Both the position numbers and the translations under genes were made by a program. A DNA stretch of 64,000 nucleotides from Candidatus Portnoybacteria bacterium (GTDB lineage Bacteria; Patescibacteriota; Minisyncoccia; Portnoybacterales; GWB1-42-6). Below the pieces are notes generated by a model, which saw only the letters and a program-made list of their open reading frames with translations, was not told the DNA's origin and searched no databases. Every line of letters starts with the position of its first letter. The first letter of the stretch is position 1. Of this stretch, positions 3,920 through 64,000 are shown piece after piece. The stretch spans positions 32,116 through 96,115 of the forward strand of contig JAQTYI010000003.1 of NCBI GenBank assembly GCA_028688325.1. Reading direction: 5' to 3'.

Positions 3920-5263
3920 TCAATCCCTCGCCTTCTGTTTTAAAACTACTAATTCGGTAAGCTTATAAACATCCCCCGCGCCCATAATCACGCAAATGTC
4001 GCCCGGCTGAAGATTTTTACGCAAATATTCCGCTGCCTCATCAAAATTAGACGCGTAAATAATATTTTCCGATTTACCCTGATCCTGCAGGCGAAGGGCT
4101 AATTTTTCCGAGCTCACTTTTTGCCTGATATCGTCTTTTTCCCTCCCCGTCGCGCTGTAAATCGGTAAAATAATTGTTTTATCTGCCGCGCCGAACGCGC
4201 CGACAAATTGGTCAAAAAAATCGTAAGTGCGCTGGTATTGGTGCGGCTGAAAAACGCACCAGAGTTTCCCTCCCCACTTTGTAAAAGGGGGGTCGGGGGG
4301 GATTTTTTTCAATAGCTCCCGCGCCCCCTCCAGCGTCGCTTTTATTTCTGTCGGATGATGGCCGTAATCATCATAAATTTTGGCGCCATTTAATTCACCT
4401 TTATACTCCATGCGCCGCCAAGCGCCGGTAAATTCATTTAGCGCTTCAACGGCAATTTTTTCATCAATGCCCAAAACTTTCGCCACGGCCAGCGCCGCGT
4501 TGGCATTGGAAACATTATGCTTGCCGGGAATTTTCAGATTCAGTTTTAGCTTATTTTCCGAGCTATATTTTTCAACGCGTAGTTTAAGATCCGCGCTTAT
4601 GAGCTTGGCAACATTTTCGTCTTCGCCATTTACAACTAAGATTCCGTCTTCCGGCAAATGCAAAATATATTCGCCGAAAGTTTCCATGATCTCGGGCAAG
4701 CCGCCTTTATAGGTATCCAGGTGCTCTTCCTCAATATTCAGCAGCACCAAAATCTTCGGCCAATAATTCAAAAACGACTTATCATATTCGTCCGCTTCTA
4801 TCACCAGATACTTACTTGTTCCCGGTCTGAAGTTGCTATTGCCCCACTCTTTGAGTTTCGTGCCCAAGATCACCGTCGGGTCCAGCCCGGCTTTCTCCAT
4901 CATCAAACCGATCATTGCCGTCGTTGTGCTTTTGCCGTGCATGCCGGAAACGGCAATTGTGTATTTTTCACGCGTCAGATCACCCAATGCCGCGGCATAT
5001 TTTTGCGTTTTCACGCCAAGCCGCCTGGCTTCAACCAATTCCGGATTATCCTCTTGCACCGCCGCACTAAATATCACGCAGTCCGACTGCGTGATATTTA
5101 GTGCTTTATGGCCGATGTAAATTTTTACGCCCAACTTTCTCAATTCCGCTACTGTTTCGTTTTTCACCGCGTCCGATCCGCTCACTTCGTCCCCTTGCGC
5201 CAAAAAATACCGCGCCAAGGCGGAAACGCCGATTCCTCCGATACCGATAAAATGAATTCTCAT
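3920..5263 (-). CDS. murC: UDP-N-acetylmuramate--L-alanine ligase
   Basis: MRIHFIGIGGIGVSALA...GMHGKSTTTAMIGL Mur-ligase motifs. A family C repeat lies in-frame at 4266-4304 (FTKWGGKLW). Confidence 0.9.
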   Translation of the reverse strand: MRIHFIGIGGIGVSALARYFLAQGDEVSGSDAVKNETVAELRKLGVKIYIGHKALNITQSDCVIFSAAVQEDNPELVEARRLGVKTQKYAAALGDLTREKYTIAVSGMHGKSTTTAMIGLMMEKAGLDPTVILGTKLKEWGNSNFRPGTSKYLVIEADEYDKSFLNYWPKILVLLNIEEEHLDTYKGGLPEIMETFGEYILHLPEDGILVVNGEDENVAKLISADLKLRVEKYSSENKLKLNLKIPGKHNVSNANAALAVAKVLGIDEKIAVEALNEFTGAWRRMEYKGELNGAKIYDDYGHHPTEIKATLEGARELLKKIPPDPPFTKWGGKLWCVFQPHQYQRTYDFFDQFVGAFGAADKTIILPIYSATGREKDDIRQKVSSEKLALRLQDQGKSENIIYASNFDEAAEYLRKNLQPGDICVIMGAGDVYKLTELVVLKQKARD

Positions 5264-5985
5264 AAAAATTTTTCCTTAATAATCAACCAAGAAAAAACTA
5301 CCACCGACCGCCAGGTTTTGCGCCATTGGCTGGGTTGAACAAATAACCGCCAGAGCCACTCCAGCCCTATTTTTTGTACCATTTTTGGCGCGCGGCGCTT
5401 TCGGCCGGAAATGAAATCAAATGTCCCGCCGACGCCGATGGCGACTTTCACGACTGGCATTTTCTTAAGATTATCATAAATCCACTTTTCTTGCTTTGGC
5501 ATTCCCAGAGCGACCAGCAAAATGGCCGCTCCGCTGCGATTGATAGCGCTTATCGCCTCTTCATCGGCGACATACCCGTTTATCGTGCCGGCAATTTTCG
5601 CCTGCGGCACTTTTTGCAAAATATTTTTTACCGCCCCTTGCGCCACCCCTTCTTTGGCGCCGAATAAAAATATGCCATGTTGCGCGCCAAATTTTGCAAA
5701 AAGCGCAAAAACCAGGTCCACGCCCATCACTCTGCTCTTCAATTTCTCGCCGCCTGAAATATAAGACGCGATTACCGGCCCGACACCGTCAGATAAGCTT
5801 AAATCCGCTTTATTTAAAATTTCTTTTAATTTTTCGTCCTTTTGCGCCTGGACCAGAAAATCAGAATACGGTAAAACGATATGATGCTGCCGACCGTCGG
5901 ACAAAAATCCGCTTATCTTTTTCAGCGATTCCCCAAGATTCAGATTGTCTATTTTTACGCCAAGTAAATACAATCCAGTGGTCAT
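5260..5985 (-). CDS. tagA: WecB/TagA/CpsF family glycosyltransferase (N-acetylmannosaminyltransferase-like)
   Basis: C-terminal GLEWLWRLFVQPSQWRK signature of Glyco_tran_WecB. 4-nt overlap with the murC stop. Confidence 0.8.
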   Translation of the reverse strand: MTTGLYLLGVKIDNLNLGESLKKISGFLSDGRQHHIVLPYSDFLVQAQKDEKLKEILNKADLSLSDGVGPVIASYISGGEKLKSRVMGVDLVFALFAKFGAQHGIFLFGAKEGVAQGAVKNILQKVPQAKIAGTINGYVADEEAISAINRSGAAILLVALGMPKQEKWIYDNLKKMPVVKVAIGVGGTFDFISGRKRRAPKMVQKIGLEWLWRLFVQPSQWRKTWRSVVVFSWLIIKEKFL

Positions 5986-29418: not shown

Positions 29419-30510
29419 TTATTCTTCGTCCTTTATCGCCGGGCCTTCAATTTGCATGGGCTCGATATCGCTTGTCTTGCCCGTAATTTTCACAACATCC
29501 TTGTCTATCTTGCCAAACTCCTTGTAGGCACGGTTATACATATTAACGGTTGTGCCAAGATTGTTGCCGAGTTTTTTCAGATATTCTTCGTAGCTCCCCA
29601 GATGCTTTTGCAGCATTTCCACATACTTGCGGATTTCCTTGGCCGATTCCTCGATCTGCAACGCGCGCAAGCCCTGCATCACCGTTTGCAGATAAGCGAA
29701 AAACGAAGTTGGCGAAACGATGATGACATGCTTTTCCTTGAACGCGTATTCTATCAAATCGCGCGTATTCACTTTGATGGCGCCCACTTGGTTTATCAAC
29801 AAGTCATAATATATGCCTTCAGCCGGAATGAACATAAAGGCGAAATCCATCGTGTCTTCGTTGGGCCGGATGTATTTGGCGGTTTCGTCTATCCGGTTTT
29901 TCAAGTCCATCTTGAACTGCTTTTCCAGATACTCTTTTTGCGTTTCGTCTTTTTCCTGCAGAATGCGGTTATAATTTTCCAATGAGAACTTTGAATCGAT
30001 GGGAATTATCTTGTCCTTAACAAACACGGCCGCGTCCACGATGTCGCCGTTCTTGAATTCGTATTGCATCTGATAGTTTTTGGGCGGAAGAACATTCTTC
30101 AGAACATTTTCCAAAAAATATTCGCCCAAAACCCCGCGGTGCTTGGGATTTTTTAAGACATCTTCCAACCCCTGCAGCTGATCGGCCACATTCATCACCT
30201 GTTTGTTGGTTTCATCCAGCTTGGTCAGTTTTTCCGTCACATTGATCATCTTATCGCCCATATCTTTGACGATCTTTGAACTTTGGGCAAATTGCTGCTG
30301 GAACATCTTGGCCGAGTCGCCCATTTTGCTATCCACCTGTGTGCCAAAGGTTTGCAAGGTCTGGCGCAACTCTTTCAACTGCTCCTGCATCATCAAAATG
30401 GCCGAGTTATCCTGCGGCTTATCTTCCGGCTTTTTTTTCAGAGTAATATAAATCAGCGCGCCGACAGCGGCCAGAACGACAAATAACAGATAATCTTGCC
30501 ATATACTCAT
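29419..30510 (-). CDS. rmuC: DNA recombination protein RmuC
   Basis: N-terminal transmembrane helix, long coiled coil. HRGVLGEYFLENVL, IPIDSKFSLENY, FMFIPAEGIYY motifs typical of RmuC. Confidence 0.85.
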   Translation of the reverse strand: MSIWQDYLLFVVLAAVGALIYITLKKKPEDKPQDNSAILMMQEQLKELRQTLQTFGTQVDSKMGDSAKMFQQQFAQSSKIVKDMGDKMINVTEKLTKLDETNKQVMNVADQLQGLEDVLKNPKHRGVLGEYFLENVLKNVLPPKNYQMQYEFKNGDIVDAAVFVKDKIIPIDSKFSLENYNRILQEKDETQKEYLEKQFKMDLKNRIDETAKYIRPNEDTMDFAFMFIPAEGIYYDLLINQVGAIKVNTRDLIEYAFKEKHVIIVSPTSFFAYLQTVMQGLRALQIEESAKEIRKYVEMLQKHLGSYEEYLKKLGNNLGTTVNMYNRAYKEFGKIDKDVVKITGKTSDIEPMQIEGPAIKDEE

Positions 30511-30534
30511 GAATTTAATTTAAATTTAATCACC

Positions 30535-30563
30535 TTGACATACACTTATCAACAGCCTATACT
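30535..30563 (+). promoter_or_regulatory. Consensus sigma70-type promoter (TTGACA-17-TATACT)
   Basis: ttgacatacacttatcaacagcctatact read directly. The partly palindromic region also gives TTGATA-17-TTAAAT on the minus strand, upstream of the rmuC ATG. Confidence 0.45.
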
Positions 30564-30596
30564 ATAGGTGTAAGTATCGAAGAAAGGCGTCGACCG

Positions 30597-31412
30597 TTAG
30601 GACGATGGCCTTTTTTCATTTTCTACTACATCTAAGGCAATAATTGGCAACCTACGCCTGATATCTTTATCCACAAAAACATTGAAATTATAGCTTTTAA
30701 AACCATTCATAAATTCCTTAGCTCCCGCGTTATTTTTTAAGTATTCTAAAAACCTTCTTTTATATTTATCACCGCTTAAAATAAGATTGGTTGATAATTT
30801 CAAATCGTAGCTTATTGCTCCAACTATCAAATCCGCTATTTGCAAAAGATCATTTGATTTTGAGTCAAAACGACAAACACCGGCAACTGCTAGTCTCTTA
30901 AATTTATCGTTTATTTTTCTTTTAACATTAACTTCAAATTTAATATCTTTTGGCGTTAAAATATGGTCGGCAATTACCATTATAATCTCGTTATAAGCAA
31001 TGCCAGACTCCAGGACTCTAATTGAGATATCTTCGTATGATTTCCAGGGATCTGCACCAAATTCTCGAAGAAAATACTCCCCCTCTTTGTCTACAGAATA
31101 AGAATTAAAACAAGTACTCCTAGTCGCGAAAAACGCATCTATCGAAAATTTTGCAAAATCTATATTATTCTTAGACAATTTATTAAACTTCATCTCATCA
31201 TAAAAATGACGCTTATTTCTTTCATAGATAATTTTACTGTTTAAATAATATGGTTGAGAGCATTTTATAAACCCGACTGTAAAGAATGGGTCTTTTTTAT
31301 TATTCAGACTGCCGCTCTCGTCCAAAAAACAAAATTTAGTCCAAATTTTTCGATAATCGGTTAAAGAAAGATTATTATTCTCTTTTCCTCTTAAAAAATT
31401 AAAGGCCCCCAT
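30597..31412 (-). CDS. DUF3800-family protein on a markedly AT-rich islet
   Basis: N-terminal FCFLDESGSL and C-terminal LLQIADLIVGAIS motifs characteristic of DUF3800. Local GC is about 30 percent against about 50 percent in the flanks. Confidence 0.6.
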   Translation of the reverse strand: MGAFNFLRGKENNNLSLTDYRKIWTKFCFLDESGSLNNKKDPFFTVGFIKCSQPYYLNSKIIYERNKRHFYDEMKFNKLSKNNIDFAKFSIDAFFATRSTCFNSYSVDKEGEYFLREFGADPWKSYEDISIRVLESGIAYNEIIMVIADHILTPKDIKFEVNVKRKINDKFKRLAVAGVCRFDSKSNDLLQIADLIVGAISYDLKLSTNLILSGDKYKRRFLEYLKNNAGAKEFMNGFKSYNFNVFVDKDIRRRLPIIALDVVENEKRPSS

Positions 31413-31445
31413 TTTTATATTAGTAAATTATCTTATATTATAATT

Positions 31446-32237
31446 TTAACACTTTTTCTTATAGATTAACAGCAACAGAGAAATAGAGAAAATTACTACT
31501 GCTATCCACTGGCTCACGCTCAAAATCCCCCAGCGAGGGTCGGCTAGGGGGCCGGAGGAAACGCGAATGAATTCAAGGAAAAAACGGATGGCGGAATAAG
31601 AAATTAGGAATAATAAAAAGAATAGACCATCTGTCATCGTGAGCCCCGCAGGGGCGTGGCGATCCCGCGATACTGCCGCGTCCACGGAATTGCTTCGTTC
31701 CGCTCGCAATGACATATTTTTTATTTTTTTCTGTAAAAACCAAAACACTGCCAACAACCCGAACCCGACCAGCGATTCATATATCCCCATCGGATGGCGC
31801 GAAATGCCGTCCGGCCATAAAATTCCCCAGGGTAAATTTGTCGGCGCGCCCTGGTGGTCGTTGATTAAAATACAGCCGATGCGGCCAATGCCAATTCCCA
31901 GCGCCATCGGTAGAACAAACAAATCGGCTGTTTTCCAAAAAGGTATTTTGGCCTTTTCCATATACGCCCACCCAAACAATATCGCGCCGATCAATCCACC
32001 CATAAAAGCGGCTCCGCCGCCCGCGGTTAACCGCGCCAGAACCCACGCGCCCGATATTGCGCCAAAAAAAATCGCGACGGCCAGGCCCGCGATTTTTTTT
32101 GGCGCCAGATTTTCTTTCCGGGCCAAGTAATAAAACAATAGATATCCAACGCTAAACCCCAGCCCCGCGAACAAACCCCAGATATAAAGCTTTACGGGAC
32201 CAAGAGAGATTTGATTAATAACAAAATACGGTATCAT
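31446..32237 (-). CDS. lgt: Prolipoprotein diacylglyceryl transferase
   Basis: IGPVKLYIWG...GIGIGRIGCILINDHQG Lgt signature. Start moved to MIPYF (32237). In-frame family B insertion at 31633-31715. Confidence 0.85.
   Translation of the reverse strand: MIPYFVINQISLGPVKLYIWGLFAGLGFSVGYLLFYYLARKENLAPKKIAGLAVAIFFGAISGAWVLARLTAGGGAAFMGGLIGAILFGWAYMEKAKIPFWKTADLFVLPMALGIGIGRIGCILINDHQGAPTNLPWGILWPDGISRHPMGIYESLVGFGLLAVFWFLQKKIKNMSLRAERSNSVDAAVSRDRHAPAGLTMTDGLFFLLFLISYSAIRFFLEFIRVSSGPLADPRWGILSVSQWIAVVIFSISLLLLIYKKKC
31633..31715. repeat. Family B-like palindromic element inside lgt
   Basis: tgtcatcgtgagccccgcaggggcg...cgctcgcaatgaca; encodes RAERSNSVDAAVSRDRHAPAGLTMTD within Lgt. Confidence 0.6.
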
Positions 32238-32420
32238 AAATCCAAGACCGCGCATACGAAAAATTTTGATAGAAAATAGCAATGAGCCGAGCGTCTAAAT
32301 TTGCGTGCTGTGGCGGGGCCCCGACCGTCAGGTCGGGGCGTTGAGGATAGCAAATTTAGCGAGGCGAGTTCTATTTTCTCAAAATTTTATCGTCGCGCGG
32401 GAACTCTTTTGCTACTTTTC
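32238..32420. repeat. Repeat family 5, second copy
   Basis: ccgcgcatacgaaaaattttgatag...gcgtgctgtggcggggccccgaccgtcaggtcggggcgttgaggatagcaaatttagcga... Confidence 0.65.
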
Positions 32421-62630: not shown

Positions 62631-63341
62631 GGCTATTCCCCTTTCTTTTGTTGTTAAAGAATATTTTTTACAGACAGCATTGCCTTGTCCCCCTATTTAA
62701 TAATGAAGAGTAATGCGAAATAAGGCAATAGTCAAATATAAAATAAAAAAGTCGCTTTAACCGAAGCGGCGCGGGAGCAATCGCTTGCTCAATTTCTTCA
62801 ATTCTTCATCACCTTACCCAATCCGACATACGGGGGAAGATTTTCTCGGTGTATTTTATTTCCCCCTCTCCTGGTTATCATCCGAGGACACCTTGAACAT
62901 AATACCGATACCTGACTATCAGACATACTGACTAATATTCCGCACTCACACTTAAAAACATCCATCTCCATAGTTTTACCCTCCCTAAGAACTACTTTAT
63001 CCTGGCCAGCGCCGATTTGGTGTTTCTCGCATCGCGCAAGTATTCCAGCTCGGCCGCTACCCTCATGATGTTTTCGCTTGGCCGAATGTGTGCCTATGGC
63101 TGCAATCACTTGCCAAGCCGATCGGGTCAAACCCAATCTTTCTGAAACTTCCCGCAGCGTCAGCTGCCTTCATCGCGTCTCTCATATTTTCCTCTTTTAT
63201 TGAAGAACAAAAGGCGTCGGATATCTTTTTAACAAAAACGGCACAATCTAAATCGCGTCGGTTTTGATAGTGATTATTTGACCCAAATCAAGTTTCTGGA
63301 TATTTGTTGTTATAAATCAGTACTGCAATTTCACCCCTATC

Positions 63342-63554
63342 TTATCCGCCAACTGTAACAGCCATTTTTTCGTGCCGGTCGACTTTATGGGACAAAGCGA
63401 CTATTTCTTGAAAACATGTATCGGCTTTTTTAGCATAACCGTCAACGGAAATCTGAAGATTATTAAAATCTTCTTTTAGATCCTTAAAATCCCCCTCTAT
63501 CTTATTGAACTTCTCGTCCAAATATTGAATTAATTCTGAAAAATCTTCTTTCAT
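63342..63554 (-). CDS. Hypothetical small protein
   Basis: ORF only; charged coiled-coil-like composition. Confidence 0.3.
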   Translation of the reverse strand: MKEDFSELIQYLDEKFNKIEGDFKDLKEDFNNLQISVDGYAKKADTCFQEIVALSHKVDRHEKMAVTVGG

Positions 63555-64000
63555 ATAACTTCATTATAAACCCAGCAAAACCTTGTCAAATGAGAATCTC
63601 GGGTCGTTTGAACCTGTCCACTGATGGCACAGATTAAAGAATTATACTGGAACACCATTGAACGAGTAATCCTTAATTGAAAGCAGGCCTATCAAACAAG
63701 CGGCCTTATCACTTTGACATGAAATGGTACCTGACACCTTTATTTTTCTCGCAAAAATTGCGAAACAAGACGCCGGGTTTTTTCCGTAAAATTTATTTAA
63801 ATTTTAATTTCCTTTATTTTTTTTGAAAAAAGCAGCAATAAAACCATGGGCAGAGCAACCCGCTTAAAGCCGGTAAAAAACAAAAAGGCGGCAGCCGGCA
63901 AAAAATTTGCCAGGCCGGTGAAAGTGACGGGATCCGGATGGTGCAAAAGCCAGGGTTTCCAAAAAACCCACCAAAGGCCGGCCAAAATCGGCGCCACCCA

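Follow-up and report, generated by a model that had tools for sequence, protein, structure and literature searches.

A DUF3800 gene and a small RNA between lgt and rmuC

The 64,000-nucleotide stretch of a Candidatus Portnoybacteria genome analysed here (contig JAQTYI010000003.1, positions 32,116 to 96,115; referred to below as the window, with positions counted from its first letter) carries an AT-rich islet between the genes lgt and rmuC, and in this islet a gene of the DUF3800 family. A first-pass annotation, made from the letters of the sequence, had described this as a lone gene. It is actually one half of a two-gene accessory module of protein plus RNA, in which the DUF3800 gene converges with, and is overlapped at its 3' end by, a small RNA (sRNA) gene of about 46 nucleotides (nt) that has its own promoter and terminator. 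The features of the module are as follows:

30511..31445, no strand assigned: AT-rich islet, the whole insert from the rmuC start to the lgt stop, delimited by composition and by empty sites in relatives
30597..31412, reverse strand: DUF3800 gene, 271 amino acids (aa), ATG start, predicted RNase HII/H2-like nuclease
30572..30617, forward strand: small RNA gene, about 46 nt, its ends placed from promoter geometry and the U-run
30586..30609, forward strand: invariant 24-nt core GGCGTCGACCGTTAGGACGATGGC, single copy in the window
30579..30617, no strand assigned: A-tract, hairpin and T-tract in the form of a bidirectional intrinsic terminator, from the fold
30535..30563, forward strand: sRNA promoter TTGACA-17-TATACT, found by scan at 11 of 12 consensus positions, with both boxes conserved in independent loci

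The family assignment given by the annotation, for which it proposed a profile search with PF12686, holds: the DUF3800 profile matches residues 27-202 over profile positions 1-148 of 149, with 45.4 bits (gathering cutoff 21; E=1.8e-11), and PHROG 3732 is a further match of the protein. Its placing of the gene between rmuC (29419..30510, reverse strand) and lgt (31446..32282, reverse strand) was likewise right, with both flanks confirmed by Pfam; they point in the same direction as the DUF3800 gene, which begins 33 nt after lgt. A consensus scan matched no promoter of the gene's own between the lgt stop and the ATG. Compared with the sRNA, whose promoter matches at 11/12, the gene thus appears weakly signalled, which points to an asymmetry of expression.

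The open reading frame (ORF) has a GC content of 0.312 (z=-6.2) and a GC content at third codon positions (GC3) of 0.283 (z=-6.7), measured against the 47 other ORFs of the window (0.475+/-0.026 and 0.556+/-0.041, respectively), and no 816-bp stretch of the 64 kb is lower in GC. The early estimate of about 30% GC was therefore close (31%), whereas the neighbourhood, taken to be roughly 50% GC, is actually at about 46-47%; the divergent codon usage that was pointed out is evident in GC3, the codon usage of the gene being atypical and AT-rich. Other patches with less than 38% GC in 816-bp windows lie at the window edges (1-900 and about 63070-63900), and no convincing ORF or family was seen in either of them.

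Conservation, fold and promoter of the small RNA

From its 5' end, the sRNA consists of a tail, (A)AGUAUC, a bulged hairpin of 16 bp with a GUUA loop, and a U-run, and it is antisense to the last codons, the stop codon and the 3' end of the DUF3800 gene. An alignment of nine copies at their 3' ends, taken from neighbourhoods unrelated to one another (with secF/rpoB, enolase, a DUF87 ATPase, HU and a serine recombinase among the upstream or adjacent genes), showed about 50 nt over the stop codon to be nearly invariant in DNA, with the coding part at about 70% protein identity, and nothing was conserved upstream of the ATG among the copies aligned. DNA conservation ends at the ORF start on one side and at the RNA promoter on the other. 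Across more than 100 loci the 24-nt core is essentially invariant, and 24 of its 24 bases remain identical while the proteins drop to about 53% identity.

The fold has a minimum free energy of -20.3 kcal/mol (z=-4.5). In 58 distinct sequences, standard pairs account for 98.4% of pair cells and changes on both sides (compensatory) are seen in 8 of 16 pairs; none of 500 shuffles reached the observed pairing and covariation values, and slid controls gave 34-76% pairing. The rare variants of the core itself are compensatory too, with U5-A20 becoming C-G in five loci and C6-G19 becoming U-A in one, and variation among them is free at bulge and loop positions. The G.U cells number 121, with one G.U pair being invariant, and on the gene-sense strand they would turn into A.C mismatches; it follows that the folded strand is the one downstream of the promoter. 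A covariance model (R1), built from these sequences, finds a single match in the window, at 30568-30625 on the forward strand (76.2 bits, E=3e-18), as against 12.6 bits on the opposite strand. The small antisense RNA that the annotation had thought possible is thus backed by conservation in more than 100 loci, by covariation and by strand-specific G.U pairs, and of all its proposals this one, the most speculative, proved to be the best supported.

No Rfam 15 family reached its gathering score anywhere in the window, and a search that included the DUF3800-I to -XI motifs gave no family at E<=10 on 30480-30700 and none at E<=5 on eight other loci. A weak and non-significant resemblance is to ctRNA_p42d, at 14-20 bits, as part of a ctRNA/CsrC-like terminator likeness. 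A tRNA or tmRNA fragment and an att site were considered and rejected, with ARAGORN finding nothing at the sRNA position. The A-tract, hairpin and T-tract probably also end the lgt-DUF3800 transcript; read on the gene-sense strand, TTTCTTC comes after the hairpin, with CTTTTTC in its place in other loci.

The sRNA promoter reads into the DUF3800 ORF from its 3' end, as the annotation had said, and the hairpin after it spans the stop codon at 30597-30599; its position was given correctly, and with 11 of 12 positions matched it is near-perfect rather than perfect. Taken singly, such a site is statistically unremarkable, given that a scan of 6 kb yields 24 promoter-like sites versus 12.4 expected. 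Across independent loci, the promoter is conserved both in sequence and in position, with a mean match of 9.55/12 and the end of the -10 box 20-22 nt before the RNA core in 33/49 loci. Since the -10 box sits at a fixed distance from the core, the RNA start may be placed at the conserved (A)AGUAUCGA.

Beside the -35 box, about 5-25 nt upstream, we observed a DnaA-box 9-mer (TTATCCACA or TGTGGATAA, in either orientation). Allowing at most one mismatch, it is present in 25/49 loci versus 1.2 expected (maximum of 5 in 200 controls), and in exact form in 17/49 loci versus 0.17 expected; the loci with a box of either kind, exact or not, are L001, L006, L017, L021, L028, L034, L035, L043, L044, L046, L049, L051, L053, L059, L062, L063 and others. 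In many lineages the sRNA may thus be controlled by DnaA. No DnaA box lies at 30511-30534 of the window, and the lineage comprising the window and L010 is without it. The sRNA promoter has another neighbour here:

30523..30552, reverse strand: candidate rmuC promoter TTGATA-18-TAAATT, from the consensus scan at 9 of 12 positions, putative in function

The two promoters are interleaved back-to-back (30523-30563), a layout also seen in L010, and RNA polymerase on one of them may exclude it from the other.

Coupling of gene and RNA, and their distribution

How tightly the two genes are coupled was assessed from both sides. Anchored on the protein, in the 78 metagenome loci with room downstream of the gene, the core was present with at most two mismatches in all 78, antisense in 77 and co-directional in one, and none of these loci holds an intact DUF3800 gene without the RNA. 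In most of them, including the syntenic relative of the window, the tblastn match stops 9 nt inside the core. In L015 the entire promoter-hairpin unit is inverted and stands after the stop codon, co-directional with the gene and with a promoter of its own (L015/L108); as this copy carries its own promoter, the RNA is an independent unit.

Anchored on the RNA, the exact 24-mer core was found in 45 of 185,579 species genomes, always as one copy per genome, and nearly all of the 45 belong to Patescibacteria, of many classes. Classified from the tblastn table and the sequences, the DUF3800 gene is intact in about 24 of them, decayed in about 6, absent in 12 and cut by the locus end in 3. Decayed genes, in the form of fragments or frameshifts beside the RNA, occur in L024, L032, L033, L034, L036 and L059, and orphan RNA genes keep intact promoters. 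One of the 45 is Mucilaginibacter frigoritolerans ATCC BAA-1854 (L050, NZ_VLLI01000012.1, positions 1-260 and 4132-5892), a cultivable isolate of the Bacteroidota, where the exact core overlaps the 3' end of a DUF3800 gene and a large serine recombinase is located about 4 kb off; this locus implies inter-phylum transfer of the module.

The protein has 663 homologues, of which the best 120 are full-length, come from many Patescibacteria lineages and, apart from the identical source-genome protein, show 63-74% identity. With phmmer, an exhaustive search of 1.84 billion cluster representatives returned 29 matches at E<=1e-30 as opposed to 326 at E<=1e-3, and, judged by this difference, the subfamily of the window protein is a compact one within a divergent DUF3800 superfamily. 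Neither the RNA core nor the protein subfamily was found in IMG/VR viral contigs, and the protein has no PLSDB plasmid match. The only relatives in annotated collections are hypothetical proteins, about 25% identical, of a few actinobacteriophages (gene 47 of Mycobacterium phage Dori, NC_023703.1, and the Gordonia phages MN428057.1 and MN234218.1). A phage or plasmid origin was rejected, with no matches in IMG/VR or PLSDB and phage homologues at only about 25% identity.

An accessory yet old islet

Four comparably distant relatives share with the window the order MurF-LexA-deacetylase-lgt-rmuC-L21-TPR-recR-dnaB, and the comparison of presence and absence that the annotation proposed shows the islet to be polymorphic at one lgt-rmuC junction. 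The DUF3800 gene occupies this same junction in L010 (and L091). Only 10-13 bp separate lgt from rmuC in L145 and L146, where the islet is absent, and in L144 it is absent as well, the junction holding an unrelated 82-aa ORF (1182-1430) that has a hydrophobic segment near its N terminus and matches nothing in Pfam. The RNA core was not found in any of these three. Because the lgt|rmuC junctions of three syntenic relatives are empty of it, the islet is accessory; the junction, for its part, is apparently open to small inserts of different kinds. The islet borders were searched for terminal inverted repeats and for a target-site duplication, and neither was seen.

An important question is whether the AT-richness of the gene indicates horizontal acquisition, as the annotation had concluded. 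As a sign of recent import this was not supported. Between the window and L010, the DUF3800 proteins are 71% identical (flanking orthologues 46-91%), with a nonsynonymous divergence (dN) of 0.21 (flanks 0.17-0.39), a synonymous divergence (dS) that is saturated for all genes, and a codon identity at conserved residues of 0.49 (flanks 0.43-0.49). The GC3 of the two DUF3800 genes is nevertheless still 0.28-0.36, as compared with 0.51-0.62 in the flanks. Window and L010 are sisters in a neighbour-joining tree of 80 distinct copies. Recent horizontal gene transfer is thus rejected, given that the gene has diverged together with its flanks. The module was acquired at the lgt|rmuC junction by a common ancestor of the window lineage, L010 and L091, and these lineages have retained it. 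In all 14 locus entries, which represent 8 distinct contexts as several are duplicate contigs, DUF3800 is 6-18 GC points below its host flanks. Co-divergence with the flanks and AT-richness in every member, whatever the host, mean that low GC is a maintained trait of the family and not the signal of an un-ameliorated import; selection of rare codons for low expression may be one cause. Of the two features that, according to the annotation, would mark the gene as native, synteny is conserved in a relative, whereas the composition is not native-like. More broadly, a gene family can keep an atypical base composition stably and under selection, and such a composition need not mark a recent transfer.

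Two further observations concern the neighbourhood. RmuC of the window is only 65% identical to that of L010 (6358-7443) and 86-90% identical to those of the islet-free L144-L146, whereas the TPR protein and MurF are closer to L010, so that gene phylogenies around the junction are discordant. The window lgt also has an in-frame insert of about 28 aa at 31630-31715 (…SLRAERSNSVDAAVSRDRHAPAGLTMTDG…), which the L010 orthologue is without; its DNA is GC-rich with inverted-repeat ends and resembles a repeat of the miniature inverted-repeat transposable element type inserted in frame. A 26-nt GC-rich stretch of this insert has no second copy in the window at three mismatches or fewer.

A predicted RNase H-like nuclease

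Published statements describe DUF3800 as a nuclease of the RNase H fold (PMC7736814, PMC10910872, PMC12669027); the literature searched reports no biochemical activity for it. An AlphaFold2 model of the window protein (mean predicted local distance difference test, pLDDT, 86; predicted template modelling score 0.83) was compared with PDB structures by Foldseek, and the top matches were all RNase HII, H2 or H3 (E=2e-5, probability 1.0, template modelling score 0.43-0.55), with weak matches to Argonaute and Cas12g. The protein is accordingly modelled as an RNase HII-like fold and predicted to be a nuclease, in agreement with the published statements. In 43 aligned sequences (alignment A1), D31-E32 (within FCFLDESG) and Q191-I-A-D194 are invariant, as is D149. 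These residues (D31, E32, D149 and Q191xxD194) are putatively catalytic, the DE...D...QxxD motif appearing intact, and both the N-terminal DE and the C-terminal QxxD motifs described in PMC7736814 are present.

The tail of the model (258-271) has a pLDDT below 50. In L015 (protein P0029), where the RNA unit is inverted, the protein is without the '...NEKGPSS' tail, and for this reason the last 14 or so residues of the window protein (...NEKRPSS) are only the ORF reading on into the antisense of the RNA gene.

Genomic contexts and links to defence

We clustered the neighbours of the module over 95-117 distinct contexts. Genes of type I restriction-modification (R-M) systems lie within a short locus in 23/117 of them, either beside the module or with the module inside the operon; HsdS, HsdR and RadC neighbours were verified by Pfam, and HsdS by PADLOC too. 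The order hsdM, DUF3800, RNA, hsdS recurs in at least 10 loci (L025, L046, L059, L065, L068, L073, L076, L098, L111 and L112), and in L023 and L061 the gene is gone from between hsdM and hsdS and the sRNA remains. The best PADLOC match of the protein is PDC-M04A (PDLC04353), with E=3.9e-19 over residues 28-247 and positions 7-225 of a 232-position profile. Both this match and the 23 of 117 copies by type I R-M operons agree with the defence linkage that the annotation had suggested. A conserved third protein was looked for and rejected: the small downstream ORFs of L001, L006 and L008 have no Pfam or convincing PADLOC match, that of L006 giving a marginal match to a phospholipase effector (E=0.0016).

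A nuclease possibly restrained by an RNA, and alternative readings

The reading that we favour, tentatively and with a little less than even confidence, is that of a defence module made of a nuclease toxin and an RNA antitoxin. The nuclease would be the toxic effector, kept harmless by an abundant and probably short-lived hairpin RNA that would bind to it, chiefly in the manner of a type III antitoxin; convergent antisense transcription across the 3' end of the mRNA could provide a further level of control like that of type I systems. If the supply of RNA were lost, for example through phage-induced shut-off of transcription, the nuclease would be freed to cut nucleic acid, most likely RNA/DNA hybrids or structured RNA, with abortive infection or growth arrest as the outcome. 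Two lines of reasoning carry this proposal. Whatever sequence a cis-antisense RNA has, it remains complementary to its target; the core is nonetheless frozen, which argues that the RNA is recognised by the protein. Moreover, a dependency of toxin on antitoxin predicts that the RNA outlives the gene and that an intact gene never stands without the RNA, as was counted: the 100% coupling, together with orphan RNAs and decayed genes, gives the dependency a direction, and the embedding between hsdM and hsdS is repeated. Published work provides a setting for such a nuclease, as DUF3800 is the effector of type VII retrons, some retrons being tripartite toxin/antitoxin systems (PMC7736814, PMC8632793), and an accessory nuclease at some Cas12/Cas13 loci (PMC10910872, PMC12669027).

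Pairing of the RNA in trans was also considered. Conserved complementarity between the RNA and the translation-initiation region of its own gene was not detected, which favours binding of the protein, and pairing with that region was rejected at -11.9 kcal/mol versus -10.9 in shuffles. An apparent internal site at codons of about 170-187 (-23.8 versus -21.3) was rejected too, being mostly a matter of composition, with duplexes inconsistent between loci.

Several points weigh against a toxin and antitoxin. We infer the small RNA from conservation alone, and an A-tract, hairpin and U-tract are also the plain look of a bidirectional terminator. Orphan RNAs with good promoters equally fit an RNA with a function of its own, and as they were found by an exact-match search, their intactness is partly an ascertainment effect. 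The window copy is flanked by housekeeping genes, lies outside any defence island and has no R-M neighbour, and the absence of the family from plasmids and IMG/VR viral contigs is unusual for mobile defence genes. Finally, PADLOC lists PDC-M04 as a multi-gene candidate, of which component A matched, and no second protein component was found among rmuC, lgt and nine recurrent or adjacent neighbours; a literature search gave no publication describing this system.

The hairpin RNA might alternatively be a structural or targeting subunit, that is, a cofactor or guide, of an active DUF3800 ribonucleoprotein and not an inhibitor, for example by directing the RNase H-like active site to a nucleic acid that is either complementary or recognised in a specific way. 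We consider this somewhat unlikely. Co-occurrence in all 78 loci and the invariance of the RNA, implying recognition by the protein, fit it; RNA-guided enzymes exist among RNase H-fold nucleases, as the weak Argonaute and Cas12g matches recall, DUF3800 accompanies RNA-guided Cas12/Cas13 effectors (PMC10910872, PMC12669027), and Weinberg et al. proposed a 'biochemically challenging task' for such RNAs (PMC5737381). However, an invariant RNA makes a programmable guide impossible, no conserved target complementarity was found, and orphan RNAs beside decayed or absent DUF3800 genes would be unexpected if the RNA were useless without the protein. These orphans, with their intact promoters, are also left unexplained by pure cis-regulation, in which a bidirectional terminator and an antisense promoter would dampen DUF3800 by transcriptional interference or by antisense pairing at the 3' end, without any interaction of RNA and protein. 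Convergent overlap in 77/78 loci, the A-tract/hairpin/U-tract architecture and the non-significant likeness to the countertranscript RNA ctRNA_p42d all speak for such regulation, but it does not account for a core that is invariant in hundreds of lineages, in loop and bulges as well, with stem changes compensated, nor for the co-directional, non-overlapping layout of L015/L108, and we regard it as unlikely.

Two other explanations look beyond the pairing of gene and RNA. The module could be a selfish mobile cassette, with the nuclease and the hairpin as enzyme and DNA or RNA recognition site, inserting just downstream of host genes. It turns up in over 90 unrelated contexts, often with the DUF3800 gene beginning 1-40 nt behind a host gene of the same orientation; one junction exists with and without it, serine recombinases are nearby in L004 and L050, and the limits of DNA conservation coincide with the ORF start and the RNA promoter. 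On the other hand, all 45 genomes have a single copy, terminal inverted repeats and a target-site duplication were not found, the same site has been held long enough for synonymous saturation, and a promoter at a fixed distance favours an RNA product over a DNA site, which together make a cassette quite improbable. Very improbable, in our view, is a housekeeping substitute for RNase H in the reduced genomes of Patescibacteria, removing RNA primers or R-loops and tied to the state of replication via the DnaA box. Such a role could draw on the predicted RNase HII-like fold with its acidic residues intact, on the housekeeping neighbours in the window, on the DnaA box next to the -35 box in 25 of 49 loci (1.2 expected) and on purifying selection (dN 0.21 with saturated dS); it is contradicted by absence from close syntenic relatives, by a patchy distribution (the exact core in 45 of 185,579 species genomes), by embedding in R-M operons, by decayed copies and by atypical codon usage.

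Within the toxin and antitoxin reading that we favour, a more specific and rather doubtful suggestion is that the RNA represents a new kind of antitoxin or sensor, single-copy, independently transcribed and recognised by its sequence, with a DnaA-controlled promoter in many lineages. If it were true, the module would read the state of transcription or replication and free the nuclease upon phage or other insult. This would provide the first mechanism for DUF3800-associated RNAs and a compact, RNA-gated nuclease accompanying type I R-M systems.

Relation to known systems

The txpA/RatA and bsrG/SR4 pairs of Bacillus subtilis are type I toxin-antitoxin (TA) systems with antisense RNAs overlapping the 3' end. 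The module resembles them in that transcription is convergent and a shared terminator lies where the 3' ends of sRNA and mRNA overlap. In type I systems the toxins are small hydrophobic peptides and the antisense RNA is free to change in sequence along with the gene, whereas here the protein is a soluble, nuclease-like one of 271 aa and the RNA sequence is frozen. To type III TA systems (ToxIN, CptIN, TenpIN) we propose a likeness of mechanism, in that a small structured RNA, recognised by its sequence and more conserved than cis-pairing requires, would neutralise a toxin with a role in abortive infection. Type III antitoxins, however, are tandem repeats upstream of the toxin gene, co-transcribed with it and processed by an endoribonuclease toxin of another fold; the window RNA exists in one copy, runs convergently to the gene and is served by a promoter and a terminator of its own, and the protein is modelled as RNase H2-like.

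Type VII retrons (reverse transcriptase, msr/msd non-coding RNA and DUF3800 effector; PMC7736814) similarly pair DUF3800 with a dedicated non-coding nucleic acid, and their effectors share the N-terminal DE motif and the RNase H2-like modelling. They differ in that the retron DUF3800 is without the Q of QxxD, which the window protein has (Q191...D194), and no reverse transcriptase was found near the window gene (lgt, rmuC, deacetylase, L21) or in eight gene-called contexts. As retron effectors and as accessory genes at Cas12/Cas13 loci, DUF3800 nucleases are thus recurrent.

The closest comparison is with the eleven unrelated DUF3800-associated RNA motifs of Weinberg et al. 2017 (PMC5737381), named DUF3800-I to -XI (Rfam RF02969, RF02968 and others), which were reported in either orientation, often with terminators, and without a functional hypothesis. 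In common with these, the window RNA is a conserved structured RNA beside a DUF3800 gene, which may stand in either orientation, is not an element of the 5' untranslated region and, as often in that class, comes with a Rho-independent terminator; the features by which the class is recognised are seen here as adjacency in 78/78 loci (77 antisense, 1 sense), covariation and an own promoter. It differs from them in matching no Rfam 15 model, in being far smaller, with one bulged hairpin of about 46 nt, in lying nearly always antisense over the 3' end of the gene with a recognisable sigma-70-type promoter, and in being essentially confined to Patescibacteria. An unexplained class of DUF3800-associated RNAs was therefore already known, and what is new is an RNA of about 46 nt that is uncatalogued in Rfam. 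With its defined promoter, 46-nt hairpin and terminator, the module is the smallest and anatomically clearest example of a DUF3800-RNA pair so far, and this explicit anatomy, together with its occurrence in a cultivable Mucilaginibacter, makes the role of DUF3800 RNAs directly testable.

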